From an uncultured Lachnospiraceae bacterium (GTDB lineage Bacteria > Bacillota > Clostridia > Lachnospirales > Lachnospiraceae): a stretch of 25,923 bases of DNA. The DNA is taken from the NCBI GenBank assembly GCA_948576075.1, contig CAPACI010000001.1, positions 5,951-31,873 on the forward strand. The letters run 5' to 3'. Below are positions 18,253 through 22,425 of the stretch, in pieces (within the stretch, counting starts at the first letter, position 1; the number at the start of each line of letters is the position of its first letter). Below the pieces are notes generated by a model. It ran no database searches and was not told the origin of the DNA. It saw only the letters and a program-made list of their open reading frames with translations. A program made the translations under genes and the position numbers.

Positions 18253-21200
18253 CTAATTTTTAAGGGCTCTATCCTCCTTAGAAGTATCTGGCGCAGATAC
18301 TCGTCTGGAATCCGCATATGTTAAATCACTAAAAAACGTCAACGTATTTTTGGAAATAATTTTTCCGTCTACAATGGCAAATACATTCCAGTAATCTTCT
18401 TGCCCAAAGCCCGTGGGCACATGAAATGTACGCACCGGATCATTTCCATGATAAACTTTAATCTGCGCTCCAGATGTCGAAAGCGTACCGCTTCCATCAT
18501 AATGATAAACGTAATAATAGTATGGGGCATCGGTATTTACATTCAATGTAATTGTTTCGGGTCCATAACCTGTTATATCATCCAGATCAAGATTGCAGAC
18601 TTCTAAATCCGACTCATAATCATATTCCCACATATTTTCATAATATACATGAAAATCCTCTCCATCTGAAAATCTTCCAACGACATGAGAATCAAGATCA
18701 CTTGGATTTTCACCCCATGTTAAAACTATCCGGTATGTATCGTCTGCCATTACAGGTGACATGGTTCCATTCTGTTCCGGATTATCCGTATCTTCCCCCG
18801 GCCATACAATAATATTAAAGCTCGTTGCCAAATACTCCTCTTTACTTGCCGTAATCGTATAATTCCCACAGGGAATCCCGAATATAACGCCAAATGCTTT
18901 TTTCGCGCCAAACCGGAACTCCCCATCAGAATCCGTTTTTAATTCCTTAATAATTTCACCTTCTGTATTATTCCAGCCAGAGCGAAGCTGAAGATTAACA
19001 TCTTCAATAGGCCTTCCTGTAACTGCATTTGTAATAATTCCCCTAAATCCCCCTTTTCCTTCTCCCGAAATCAATTCAATTTCCTGCATATATGTCATTT
19101 CGCCATCTTCTATTCTTTCGTAAGCAGAAAAAGGAAGATATCCGTCCTTTGTTATTTCTATCAAAAATGTCCCACTTGGAAGGGAACATGAGAAATTACC
19201 TAATTCATCTGTTTCCATTGCAGTGACTCCCATATCGTCTTTGGAAATTTTAACGCTTACCCCCTTGATATTGTTTCCAGTTTCAGAATCTTTAATATGA
19301 CCATACAATTCTCCATTCTCTGATAACGGAGACAATATGACTGTCTGCGCATTGCCTTTCGTCACAAACGATTTGCTTACACGCTTCCCATCTATATTTG
19401 CATTAGCTATATAAATCCCGTCATACAGATATTCCACGTATGTCGAATTGCCTGCCTTTTCATATGCCGTATTGCCATCTTCCCTTTTAATTGTCACAGG
19501 GATGCCTGTAAGAGTCTCGTCCTTGTCATTTAAGACTTGAATAGTTGTTTTGTAAAATTTATTTTTACAAGGGCCAAACCCATATTTTTTCTCTCCTCTG
19601 TATACACTGTCTCTGCTATTAGAAAGTGACCAAAAACATATTCCGGGGTATTCAGGAAGGAAATTGACATATCCTTCAAGTTCAAATAATTTAATATTAA
19701 ATATATCTCCCTTTAAAGCATCATCGCAAATTGCAAACGTCATTTTTAAGTTTAAATCTGCAAACCATTTTATCTCACCAGAAACACACAAATCACACGC
19801 ATGTTTGGACTCTGCATGATTTAACACATCATCACTGCCCATTTCTACTTCAGCAGTCATTTTTACGCCAGAATGGCCGCTAAATTCCACTTTAACTACA
19901 TCTTTACAGAACTGGATCGCCGTAGAAAGTTTTGGACCAATCTTTATTTCTGCCTTACCCTCCGCCATTAAACTCACTGTTTGTGATTTTTCTTTGATGT
20001 CTTCTCTTCCAGAATAGGAATTGTATTGAAAACCCGACTTCTGTGAATAAGTATAATCCAATGATATACTCCCGCTAGCCTCCCATTCTATTGGAATTTT
20101 AGGATTTATCGACGCTTCAAGCCCCGGCACCGGCGTTGGAACTGAAACCCTTGGCAATGGAATCTCTGTTTTGTCTGCCCTGCGCGCATTATTATCATTT
20201 CCATCATTATCTTTAGACACCTCCCCCTTTATGCCAAGTTTTCCCTCAAGCAATGTTGTAATGTTACATTCAAAATAATCTTTCGCAAAAAGTTTGGCAT
20301 CATAAGATATTTGTATGCTGAATTGTACAGATCCACTAAGCGTCCCAGAAACTTTTAAAGTGTCTTCTATTAGCTCATGAGAAAAATCTCCGCCAATCGT
20401 CGGACTGGAAAAGTTGGTTTCGACGTCTATAATATCAATCTTTGGCTGAATGCCACTGTCCTCAGATTTCATATCTGTTTTCAAAACATCATAAAAATCA
20501 GTTAGCATTACATCTGATGCGGTTGTAAATGTGATGGACCCATCCGAATTATTAATAACCTCCTTAATCTTAAACAGATACGCAGTGCCTGTAACATAAA
20601 CCGGATCGCCGGATCGCAGTCCCCTTAAATCATTGTCAGGGTTATAAAACGTATATGTATGATCTAACGTATTGCTTTCAAATTCATCTTCAATGAAAAT
20701 ATCTTCTACAACTAACCTATTTGTCATGTTGCCAGAATTAATTATCTTCACATTTTCATTAAATACGCCAAAATTGTTTTCTGTGCTTTCATCAAAATTC
20801 ACAACCTTTTCTTCCGGAAAATCATATACTGTCTTTTCTTCAAACCGGGCATATTTCGCAGAATAATCGATACATAAAAATGATTCACACAGATTTTTTT
20901 CTATACCTTCCCCATCTAATTCCACGAGCCTTGCGCGAATCAGATAGTAATCGGTTAAAGCAGTTTCCACAGGTATAGAAACACAAATCATCTCTCCATA
21001 ATCTGGCGTCTGCGTGGCAACTCTTGTAATTGGTTCTTTCTGGAGACAGGCATTTACGGCTTCTTGTTCCCAGCTGCCATCTATACCGATTGTATCCTCA
21101 TAAAACTCTACAACCAATGCGCAGGCTGAATTTGTATTGATCGTTGCCTGTAGGGTATTTCCATTCATCTCTACACCTGAAATGGAGTAAATCGTTTCTT

Positions 21201-22425
21201 CCTTATTTGTCGCAGAATAAAGTGAATCTGTACTGCCGTCCGGCGAACCCCATCCGGCATACAACACCATATCCCCTTTAACTGGAGAACCAAAATCATA
21301 TTTTGTTACAGCCGCAGACTCCATATACCAGCCAGTAAACCCATACATATCTCTTTCGGGGTCAGCTGGCGCTGCCACAGACTTGCCTTCTGCAACTTTC
21401 TGTATCTCATATACATTTTTTGAACCGTCGTTACAGTCAAATGTAACCTGATAACATGCATCCGAATCGGAAGAAATCTGTGTCTGCCTCATCCATTTTG
21501 CATAAAGCGTTAGATTTCCTGTAACTGCTTTTGAAAAATTATAAACCTTTTTAAGCGCTTTATCAGTATGCCATCCTCCAAACACATAGCCGTTTCTTAT
21601 CGGATCAACCGGTTTTGAAACACGCCTGCCTGCAAGAATTTTTTGCGAAGGAGGCATTTTCCCCACATCAGAAGCATTTGAAACAAATGTAACTGTATAA
21701 TACATAATAGGATTTGCCTCTTTTGTGACTATAATCTTGACTGTGACCTTTTTTCCCCCGGAAGTACCTGTCATGATAGCCGCGCCTTCCCTAACAGCTC
21801 TGACATTTCCTGATTTTGTAACTGTCGCTATGGAAGAATTATTAGATTTCCAAGTAATAGGCTGTATTTTTTTTGCAGGACTTGTAACTTTTGCTTTCAA
21901 ATTTACCGACTGACCTGCATTCAACTGATAAACACTGTTGCAAAGCAAGCTGATTTTTTTTGTTTTATTATATATTGTAATTTTACATACAGCTTTAATT
22001 TTCGAATTATGTTTCGACTTTGCAATAATTTTAACAGTTCCGGCCCTTTTCGCTTTCACTTTCCCTTTTGGAGTGACAGTCGCAACTTTTTTGTTTGAAC
22101 TGCTCCATGTTACAGTTTTAGATGCCTTAGATGGAATTGTTTTTTTTACTTTTAAAGTTCTGGATTCTCCTTTTACCATCATCAGCTTACTTTTATTTAA
22201 TACAATCTTTTTTGGCTCATTTCGCCTTTTTGCAGCTTCTGTATTTGCCGGTAACAATGTTAAAACCATTGTAATTGCTAATAATGCCGTTATTAACTTT
22301 CTAAACGTTTTTTTTAATTTCATAATGTACCCCTTTCTGTTCTGCCAACGCTTGTAATCATTATCCCTTCTTTTACACAGGAGATTAAATAAAGAATCTG
22401 ATGCTTTTTCCAATGCCAATCGCAT
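18253..22425 (-). CDS. Giant secreted multidomain cell-surface protein (Big_2, Listeria-Bacteroides repeats, 3x CarboxypepD_reg-like, PPC-like C-terminus)
   Basis: Signal peptide MKLKKTFRKLITALLAITMVLTLLPANTEAA. Big_2-like units (KKVATVTPKGKVKAKRAGTVKIIAK; SSIATVTKSGNVRAVREGAAIMTG). Two Flg_new / Listeria-Bacteroides repeats (YTVTFVSNA...NGYVFGGWHTDKA...LTLYAKW; YQVTFDCNDG...YGFTGWYMES...MVLYAGW). Three carboxypeptidase-regulatory-like beta-sandwiches (IPVTIKREDGNTAYE...; VSVKISKDDMGVTAMETDELGNFSCSLPSGTFLIEITKDGYL; VNLQLRSG...TDSDGEFRF...GNYTITASKEEYL). C-terminal segment YRIVLTWGENPSDLDSHV...APYYYYVYHYDG. There are two candidate starts. ATG 22425 follows GAAGGAGAGCATATT. ATG 22323 (MKLKK) follows AAAGGGGTACATT. 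Confidence 0.75.
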   Translation of the reverse strand: MRLALEKASDSLFNLLCKRRDNDYKRWQNRKGYIMKLKKTFRKLITALLAITMVLTLLPANTEAAKRRNEPKKIVLNKSKLMMVKGESRTLKVKKTIPSKASKTVTWSSSNKKVATVTPKGKVKAKRAGTVKIIAKSKHNSKIKAVCKITIYNKTKKISLLCNSVYQLNAGQSVNLKAKVTSPAKKIQPITWKSNNSSIATVTKSGNVRAVREGAAIMTGTSGGKKVTVKIIVTKEANPIMYYTVTFVSNASDVGKMPPSQKILAGRRVSKPVDPIRNGYVFGGWHTDKALKKVYNFSKAVTGNLTLYAKWMRQTQISSDSDACYQVTFDCNDGSKNVYEIQKVAEGKSVAAPADPERDMYGFTGWYMESAAVTKYDFGSPVKGDMVLYAGWGSPDGSTDSLYSATNKEETIYSISGVEMNGNTLQATINTNSACALVVEFYEDTIGIDGSWEQEAVNACLQKEPITRVATQTPDYGEMICVSIPVETALTDYYLIRARLVELDGEGIEKNLCESFLCIDYSAKYARFEEKTVYDFPEEKVVNFDESTENNFGVFNENVKIINSGNMTNRLVVEDIFIEDEFESNTLDHTYTFYNPDNDLRGLRSGDPVYVTGTAYLFKIKEVINNSDGSITFTTASDVMLTDFYDVLKTDMKSEDSGIQPKIDIIDVETNFSSPTIGGDFSHELIEDTLKVSGTLSGSVQFSIQISYDAKLFAKDYFECNITTLLEGKLGIKGEVSKDNDGNDNNARRADKTEIPLPRVSVPTPVPGLEASINPKIPIEWEASGSISLDYTYSQKSGFQYNSYSGREDIKEKSQTVSLMAEGKAEIKIGPKLSTAIQFCKDVVKVEFSGHSGVKMTAEVEMGSDDVLNHAESKHACDLCVSGEIKWFADLNLKMTFAICDDALKGDIFNIKLFELEGYVNFLPEYPGICFWSLSNSRDSVYRGEKKYGFGPCKNKFYKTTIQVLNDKDETLTGIPVTIKREDGNTAYEKAGNSTYVEYLYDGIYIANANIDGKRVSKSFVTKGNAQTVILSPLSENGELYGHIKDSETGNNIKGVSVKISKDDMGVTAMETDELGNFSCSLPSGTFLIEITKDGYLPFSAYERIEDGEMTYMQEIELISGEGKGGFRGIITNAVTGRPIEDVNLQLRSGWNNTEGEIIKELKTDSDGEFRFGAKKAFGVIFGIPCGNYTITASKEEYLATSFNIIVWPGEDTDNPEQNGTMSPVMADDTYRIVLTWGENPSDLDSHVVGRFSDGEDFHVYYENMWEYDYESDLEVCNLDLDDITGYGPETITLNVNTDAPYYYYVYHYDGSGTLSTSGAQIKVYHGNDPVRTFHVPTGFGQEDYWNVFAIVDGKIISKNTLTFFSDLTYADSRRVSAPDTSKEDRALKN

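Follow-up and report, generated by a model that had tools for sequence, protein, structure and literature searches.

A Sec-exported modular surface protein with an unclassified central module, encoded at a variable site in an uncultured Lachnospiraceae bacterium

The window analyzed here is a stretch of 25,923 nucleotides from an uncultured Lachnospiraceae bacterium (GenBank assembly GCA_948576075.1, contig CAPACI010000001.1, positions 5,951 to 31,873 of the forward strand); all coordinates below are those of the window. Read in the direction of transcription, its minus strand encodes a CHAT protein fragment, an MVP-like protein, a long multidomain surface protein, which is the subject of this article, and an ATP-grasp protein. 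An earlier note, made from the letters of this DNA, had recognized in the surface protein a signal peptide, Big_2 and Flg_new units, a long central beta-rich region, three CarboxypepD_reg-like domains, and a C-terminal domain of the PPC/pre-peptidase type, and had placed the gene in an AT-rich, possibly horizontally acquired block together with the MVP-like and CHAT genes. We find that the surface protein belongs to a large family of modular proteins of Clostridia that is defined by a central module without Pfam or PDB relatives, that its C-terminal domain is homologous to the terminal part of YfaP of Escherichia coli, and that its gene differs in composition and in conserved context from both of its unusual neighbors.

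The gene and the export of its product

The open reading frame (ORF) found mechanically spans 18253..22425 on the minus strand and comprises 1390 codons and a stop, in accord with the 1390-amino-acid (aa) protein described originally. There are, however, two in-frame ATG codons, each preceded by a Shine-Dalgarno-like sequence, one at 22425, just past the stop codon that ends the MVP-like gene, the other at 22323, corresponding to residue M35 of the ORF. The second is probably the true start because the two closest homologs (P0002 and P0003, 68% identity) start right at their signal peptides, and because the N-terminal extensions of two others (P0004 and P0005) are unrelated to the extension of the 1390-aa ORF. 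The probable coding sequence, then, is 18253-22323 (minus strand), with a product of 1356 aa. From ORF residue 35 onward, the translation reads MKLKKTFRK...TEA, a Sec-type signal peptide without a lipobox cysteine (residues 35-64, 22234..22323, minus strand; MKLKKTFRKLITALLAITMVLTLLPANTEA, with the putative cleavage site preceding the next residue, A), and the only strongly hydrophobic segment of the entire protein, residues 40-62 (Kyte-Doolittle hydropathy above 1.6), lies within it. Thus, the signal peptide is indeed present, although it begins at residue 35 of the ORF, and the surface protein is exported via Sec.

Domain architecture

Downstream of the signal peptide, the protein consists, in this order, of a Big_2 pair, a pair of Flg_new repeats, the central module, an unclassified unit, two CarboxypepD_reg domains, and a YfaP-type domain. 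The two Big_2 (PF02368) immunoglobulin (Ig)-like domains (residues 66-240, 21706..22230, minus strand) score 50.2 and 40.0 bits against the Pfam gathering cut-off of 22.8, and the two Flg_new (PF09479; Listeria-Bacteroides) repeats (residues 242-393, 21247..21702, minus strand), for which the cut-off is 27, reach 67.9 and 64.3 bits; the Flg_new region is also matched by the NCBIfam model TIGR02543 (49.2 against a cut-off of 20.95). The NCBIfam search of the protein yielded nothing outside the Flg_new region, and the PHROGs matches are confined to the Big_2 region. Both domain assignments of the earlier note hold, and so does its remark that no obvious LPXTG, SLH, or choline-binding anchor is visible: a motif scan, hydropathy analysis, and Pfam and NCBIfam searches detected no LPXTG, lipobox, YSIRK, SLH, choline-binding (CWB), or GW element in the protein, and no second hydrophobic segment appears in its hydropathy profile. 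Lachnospiraceae often lack obvious wall anchors.

The Big_2 pair is markedly polycationic, with an isoelectric point (pI) of 11.0 and 42 lysines and arginines versus four aspartates and glutamates, whereas the remainder of the protein is acidic (pI 4.2-4.8). All homologs with a Big_2 module, including one with only about 41% identity (P0014), are basic in that module (pI 9.95-10.9), whereas the N-terminal modules of the homologs with SLH domains have pI values of 4.3-8.5. Given that the Big_2 pair is strongly basic and is placed where many homologs carry an SLH triplet, we infer that it serves as a non-covalent wall anchor, which would bind anionic wall polymers electrostatically.

The family-defining central module comprises about 560 aa (residues 394-955, 19561..21246, minus strand). 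It has no Pfam match even at E<=10 and no NCBIfam match, and a search of the PDB sequences with a profile of the module found no relative. The AlphaFold2 model, which is of moderate confidence (pLDDT 70.8, pTM 0.35), is all-beta, in agreement with the long beta-rich region suspected from the sequence, and consists of two small beta-sandwich subdomains followed by about 290 residues of predicted antiparallel strands, 20-34 aa each. The long strands show strict alternation of hydrophobic and polar residues throughout the family. The only structural resemblances, all weak, are to the walls of beta-barrels and to beta-pore-forming toxins in their pore form; there is no significant structural or sequence match between the module and either these toxins or outer-membrane beta-barrels. 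Two features of the module are invariant in the family alignments, namely, the motif H875-x-C877-x-x-C880 (19786..19803, minus strand) and C953 (19567-19569, minus strand). No other polar residue is invariant across 38-41 distant family members, and these four form a candidate structural metal (zinc) site.

The module is followed by a unit of about 82 residues (956-1037, 19315..19560, minus strand), for which the sole Pfam match is a weak Ig-like one (E 0.042), and by two CarboxypepD_reg (PF13620; transthyretin/prealbumin-like) domains (residues 1038-1209, 18799..19314, minus strand). Of the three such domains proposed earlier, only these last two stand, with scores of 37.7 (1038-1125) and 36.3 (1125-1209) bits against a cut-off of 32.3. 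The unit 956-1037 was rejected as a third copy, having no significant Pfam match and no detectable similarity to either of the other two. The CarboxypepD_reg domains would act as a stalk.

The C-terminal domain

The protein ends in a discrete domain (residues 1222-1372, 18310..18762, minus strand) for which AlphaFold2, given an alignment of 18 sequences, predicts an all-beta structure with high confidence (pLDDT 91.2), in line with the separate C-terminal domain that had been noted. The last 180 residues have no Pfam match even at E<=10, and the profile of the domain retrieved nothing from the PDB sequences, TerD included. Direct profile comparison with E. coli YfaP nevertheless yields an hhalign probability of 96.3% (E 1.7e-9, 33% identity) over YfaP residues 142-247, and the domain is thus a homolog of the terminal part of this protein. 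Its signature, LxW..DLDxH...LDxD....GPE, is invariant. The profile matched 648 proteins; most of those listed are short proteins of diverse phyla in which a CarboxypepD_reg domain is combined with this one, and several close matches are named 'YfaP (DUF2135 family)' by JGI. The Pfam DUF2135 model (PF09906) matches neither the surface protein nor eight relatives at E<=10 because its 48 positions span only residues 199-244 of YfaP. A literature search returned no mention of DUF2135 and, among the ten matches for YfaP that were listed (of 18), no account of its function.

As for the fold, the model of the domain is a beta-sandwich of the kind found in the TerD family (PF02342). At the level of sequence, membership in this family was rejected: the Pfam TerD model does not match the surface protein, the hhalign probability is 0.13% against TerD and 0.5% against an alignment of TerD, TerE, TerZ, and TerA, and, as mentioned above, TerD is absent from the results of the PDB sequence search. 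The PPC/pre-peptidase type to which the domain had been likened was not borne out, and a collagen-binding identity was rejected along with it: the PPC-like collagen-binding domains of the clostridial collagenases ColH and ColG reach structural scores of 5.4 and 4.8 against the model, a far weaker match than that of TerD, and Pfam offers no match at E<=10. Six invariant acidic and histidine residues (D1243, D1245, H1247, D1280, D1282, and E1290) probably constitute a metal site; the domain would bind metal, probably Ca2+, and form a distal binding tip.

A large family of surface proteins

The identical surface protein is present in 46 contigs, and one close variant has been deposited as a hypothetical protein of a Eubacterium sp. 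metagenome-assembled genome (MAG; MCI9427691.1); the same-species genome match is a mouse-gut Lachnospiraceae MAG. Beyond these, 22 near-full-length homologs, with 37-68% identity, share a common core made up of the Flg_new repeats, the central module, the unclassified unit with two CarboxypepD_reg domains, and the C-terminal domain. The N-termini, by contrast, are swapped: many homologs have three SLH domains, the Big_2 pair is found in the surface protein, P0002-P0005, and P0014, and a few homologs have an N-terminal segment with an LPXTG-like motif and a transmembrane helix. In P0006, P0017, and P0018, the N-terminal 200-230 residues include an LPXTG-like NPKTG or NTKTG motif followed by a hydrophobic helix and a lysine-rich stop-transfer segment; this LPXTG-like segment is embedded midway along the N-terminal region, with a second signal-like segment between it and the conserved core. 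These N-termini may derive from the fusion of a small sortase substrate or may adopt an unusual topology. The other end of the protein varies as well, with a C-type lectin taking the place of the C-terminal domain in P0022, and the shorter proteins P0024 and P0025 combine a GDSL lipase, CarboxypepD_reg, and the same C-terminal domain.

A profile search for the central module retrieves at least 1530 clusters (representatives at 50% identity) with E<=1e-3, including 573 with E<=1e-30, and the proteins behind the 150 listed matches range in length from 585 to 2915 aa. The distant members sampled, 38 in number, combine the module with CarboxypepD_reg (in 27), Flg_new (26), SLH (14), SpaA (12), LRR_5 (10), PEGA (8), and, in a few cases, Big_2, bMG3, Lectin_C, and PG_binding_1. 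Of 41 partner families, the 25 commonest were listed, and every one of these is a structural or binding domain and not an enzyme. Cluster look-ups of ten distant members returned no named protein. Such a profile is that of a cell-surface binding or adhesin family of Clostridia that is known almost solely from metagenomes.

Composition and genomic context

The surface gene stands out in composition. Its GC content is 0.380 and its GC content at third codon positions (GC3) is 0.316, compared with a GC3 of 0.430-0.556 (mean 0.486, standard deviation 0.034) for the 12 genes to the left, and its relative synonymous codon usage (RSCU) correlates with that of the core genes at 0.50, whereas the core genes themselves yield 0.64-0.87. 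The low GC3 extends evenly along the gene, with all domains at 0.28-0.34. The MVP-like gene, by contrast, is indistinguishable from the core genes (GC 0.433, GC3 0.440, RSCU correlation 0.85), and the CHAT fragment is only slightly low (GC 0.430, GC3 0.403, RSCU correlation 0.64), as are the genes lying further upstream (GC3 0.39-0.45), which are seen in a longer contig from this species. Hence, the impression that the DNA is AT-richer from about 18.2 kb to the right edge is correct for the surface gene, whereas the segment 22.4-25.9 kb is not clearly so. The homologs of the surface gene have GC3 below that of all or nearly all neighbors in five of six other genomes.

Genomes with 71-79% identity in the ATP-grasp protein retain the ATP-grasp, DUF308, TetR, and MMPL genes and, usually, the MatE and YhgE genes; homologs of the surface, MVP-like, and CHAT proteins are all absent from the 10 kb upstream of the ATP-grasp gene in these genomes. 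In six related genomes, the upstream region is occupied instead by an Mrp/Mnh antiporter cluster; five of them have it directly adjoining the ATP-grasp gene, and the remaining one carries an insertion of a low-GC3 pair of AAA_21 (AbiEii-like) and RloB genes at this junction. The loci concerned, all upstream of ATP-grasp, are L018:6006-8244, L013, L016, L017, L019, and L024. With such variable content, the site itself is variable, and the junction upstream of ATP-grasp suggests an accessory-gene hotspot.

Elsewhere, the homologs of the surface protein are found in dissimilar company. One (P0012, locus L002) is located beside GroESL and is followed by an IS66 transposase; another (P0008, locus L003) lies inside an element with an integrase, RepA_N, a single-stranded DNA-binding protein (SSB), toxin-antitoxin pairs, and a TraG/VirD4-like coupling protein; others adjoin LRR_5 proteins. 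None of the six contexts of surface-protein homologs includes MVP or CHAT, and none of the three contexts of MVP homologs includes a surface-protein homolog. The proposed horizontal acquisition of a CHAT/MVP-like/surface-protein block thus divides into two parts: the DNA from 18.2 kb to the right edge is indeed non-syntenic, but both composition and homolog contexts speak against a single block. Because all three genes are absent in the relatives and the homologs of the surface and MVP-like proteins never occur together in the contexts sampled, the region is accessory without being one acquired or functional unit. The functional and evolutionary unity of the surface gene with the MVP-like and CHAT genes was accordingly rejected, given the different composition and the non-conserved neighborhoods.

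The surface gene is separated from the ATP-grasp gene by a strong hairpin followed by a U-rich tract (17993..18068, minus strand), with a 13-bp stem plus an inner stem (dG -31.2 kcal/mol, z -6.2), which probably is an intrinsic terminator; Rfam finds no match in this downstream spacer. On the other side, a gap of 14 nt (or of 116 nt if translation starts at M35) separates the surface gene from the MVP-like gene, which precedes it on the same strand. A promoter and terminator consensus scan over the surface gene and its flanks was uninformative, and no terminator was seen after the MVP-like gene. Flanking direct repeats that would mark an insertion were not found. The plasmid collection contains no near-identical DNA, and the phage collection gives one partial protein match, limited to CarboxypepD_reg and the C-terminal domain. 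PADLOC matched no system at the MVP-like, CHAT, and surface genes and gave no match on the surface protein.

Neighboring genes and other features of the window

The MVP-like gene (22440-24833, minus strand) encodes a protein with an MVP_shoulder match (E 4.9e-21) and a weak Vault_3 match. Its family is very large, with 6344 matches among the candidates scored, and homologs occur in phage-like or mobile contexts; three huge-phage records of 462-735 kb (LR756500, LR756501, and LR756503) carry full-length copies with 37% identity. Bacterial and gut-phage MVPs have been described in preprints (10.1101/872010 and 10.1101/2023.11.10.566534). The CHAT ORF (24845-25909, minus strand) covers only the last 354 residues of a protein of 886 aa. 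In this species, the region further upstream (L001:938-7581) has genes for a TY-Chap1-like protein (a weak match), a TraG/VirD4-like NTPase (a weak PADLOC mad8 match), and a ClpP-like protease (E 1e-26 to a PHROG head-maturation protease), along with two genes for hypothetical proteins. The CHAT/TY-Chap1/TraG/ClpP cluster corresponds to no known PADLOC system and may be a conflict system or a phage remnant.

On the other side of the surface gene, the 453-aa ATP-grasp protein (16586-17947, minus strand) matches only circularly permuted ATP-grasp families, and these below threshold (25 bits for CP_ATPgrasp_2, where the cut-off is 32). Nevertheless, its strong conservation and its synteny with DUF308, MatE, TetR, and MMPL extend across genomes of Roseburia and Lachnospiraceae. 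Farther to the left, the window encodes a hypothetical exported protein with a long, low-complexity C-terminal tail rich in asparagine and glutamine (NNQNN-type repeats; 2453-3826, minus strand) and an 813-aa protein with alanine-rich repeats (AQAKDQAVAGIQ three times, AGSVAEQ six times; 9291-11732, minus strand), with a local GC maximum of 0.53-0.555 (9.5-11 kb) over the repeat region.

Discussion

With moderate confidence, we interpret the gene at 18253-22323 as encoding a Sec-exported, elongated, modular surface protein of the adhesin or binding type and as an independently mobile accessory gene that probably came from a lower-GC donor. The domain composition, the export, the lack of classical anchors, the membership in the family, and the fold and homology of the C-terminal domain are the firm part of this interpretation. 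The gene was most likely acquired alone, separately from the MVP-like and CHAT genes, and sits at the variable site upstream of the conserved ATP-grasp gene; its independent mobility is suggested by the low GC3, which recurs in most homologs, and deviating codon usage, the IS66 and integrase contexts of homologs, the absence from relatives, and the terminator-like hairpin.

Several considerations weigh against this interpretation. In part, the low GC3 may reflect a property of the whole family and not a recent transfer. The central module, which accounts for 40% of the protein, has no assigned role, and its predicted structure is of moderate confidence. The Big_2 domain is, to our knowledge, not established as a wall anchor, and the basic pair might bind anionic host glycans instead; the ligand, localization, and anchoring of the protein are all predictions from sequence. 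Finally, since no terminator is apparent between the MVP-like gene and the surface gene, co-transcription is possible, and with it some functional coupling in this species.

A rather unlikely alternative, although the best of those that we considered, is that the gene is cargo of a mobile element, for example, a remnant of an integrative and conjugative element or a prophage, so that the product would be an aggregation or mating adhesin, as in Gram-positive conjugative elements, and not an adhesin for host colonization. The element around P0008, with its integrase, RepA_N, SSB, toxin-antitoxin, and TraG genes, and the IS66 transposase directly after P0012 fit this scenario, as do the TraG-like NTPase and ClpP-like protease genes located 7-9 kb upstream in this species and the GC3 below that of nearly all neighbors in most of the sampled genomes. 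Yet the surroundings of the gene in this genome show no complete conjugation or phage module, the homolog contexts L004-L007 include no mobility genes beside the homolog, and the plasmid and phage collections provide only the single partial protein match mentioned above.

Less probable still is that the protein is released and acts as a toxin or another membrane-active protein, the long amphipathic beta-hairpins of the central module building a lipid-binding sheet or a pore, with the remaining domains serving in targeting. The modeled strands of 20-34 residues, with their strict hydrophobic/polar alternation, the weak resemblances to beta-barrel walls and toxin pores, and the absence of a covalent anchor could all be accommodated by such a mechanism. 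However, amphipathic strands equally suit an ordinary sandwich with a hydrophobic core, many relatives are SLH-anchored wall proteins (14 of 38), no stand-alone members of toxin size are evident among the central-module matches, and the confidence of the model is moderate. We see only a slim chance that the central module represents a new structural class, a metal-stabilized, membrane- or lipid-active (pore-forming or lipid-binding) sheet borne on Gram-positive gut bacteria with swappable anchor and targeting domains.

It is very unlikely that the surface protein is a component (effector, cargo, or sensor) of an MVP-like/CHAT system whose three genes were acquired as one block: the three genes share a strand, the gap of 14-116 nt contains no terminator, all three are absent at the site in related genomes, and the arrangement is kept within the species (including L009), but the association recurs in none of the six surface-homolog or the three MVP-homolog contexts, the GC3 of 0.316 contrasts with 0.44 and 0.40 and the RSCU correlation of 0.50 with 0.85 for the MVP-like gene, the surface protein is exported whereas the other two are predicted to be cytoplasmic, and there is no PADLOC system match.

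On the interpretation as a separately acquired adhesin-type protein, the surface protein can be removed from any model of its more unusual MVP-like and CHAT neighbors. The protein is of an ordinary kind, and its orphan central module and extended YfaP/TerD-like domain are leads for annotation rather than surprises. A large surface-protein family of gut Clostridia with a shared core of about 560 residues that lacks both a domain model and a structural relative matters mainly for annotation, and the YfaP/DUF2135 domain turns out to be about three times longer than its Pfam model, with a TerD-like fold and an invariant acidic cluster; both the central core and the YfaP-type domain are concrete targets for new domain families and structural work. 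The replacement of SLH domains by a polycationic Big_2 pair suggests a testable means by which Lachnospiraceae could retain wall proteins.

Relation to known systems

The closest parallels are with modular surface proteins of Firmicutes, for example, the BspA-type proteins with LRR, Flg_new, and Big_2 units and internalin-like proteins, with which the protein shares the Sec signal, the Big_2 and Flg_new domains, and the transthyretin-like spacers. Many members of its family further resemble SLH-anchored and other modular Firmicutes adhesins in carrying SLH, LRR_5, SpaA, PEGA, or lectin domains. Unlike such proteins, the copy described here has no SLH, LPXTG, GW, or CWB anchor, and about 40% of it is a module of about 560 residues without a Pfam or PDB relative.

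TerD is described as a Ca2+-binding beta-sandwich protein of tellurite resistance (Pan et al. 2011, as cited in PMC9191617). By eye, the order of the acidic DLD and DDxTGxG segments in the C-terminal domain is the same as that of DLDAS and GDNRTGEGDGDDE in TerD (PDB 2QZ7 and 2KXT), whereas the TerD proteins are cytoplasmic and function in stress response and the domain here is extracellular.

A further parallel is E. coli YfaP. The final 105 residues of YfaP are homologous to the C-terminal domain, LxW..DLDxH..LDxD..GPE is invariant in a cross-phylum alignment of 17 sequences that includes YfaP, and in most of the listed matches to the YfaP-type domain it follows CarboxypepD_reg, as it does here. 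The settings differ: YfaP is a 258-aa protein of Gram-negative bacteria (DUF2135, COG4676) encoded in the operon of the alpha-2-macroglobulin gene yfaS, whereas in the Lachnospiraceae bacterium the domain terminates a 1356-aa surface protein of a Gram-positive cell.

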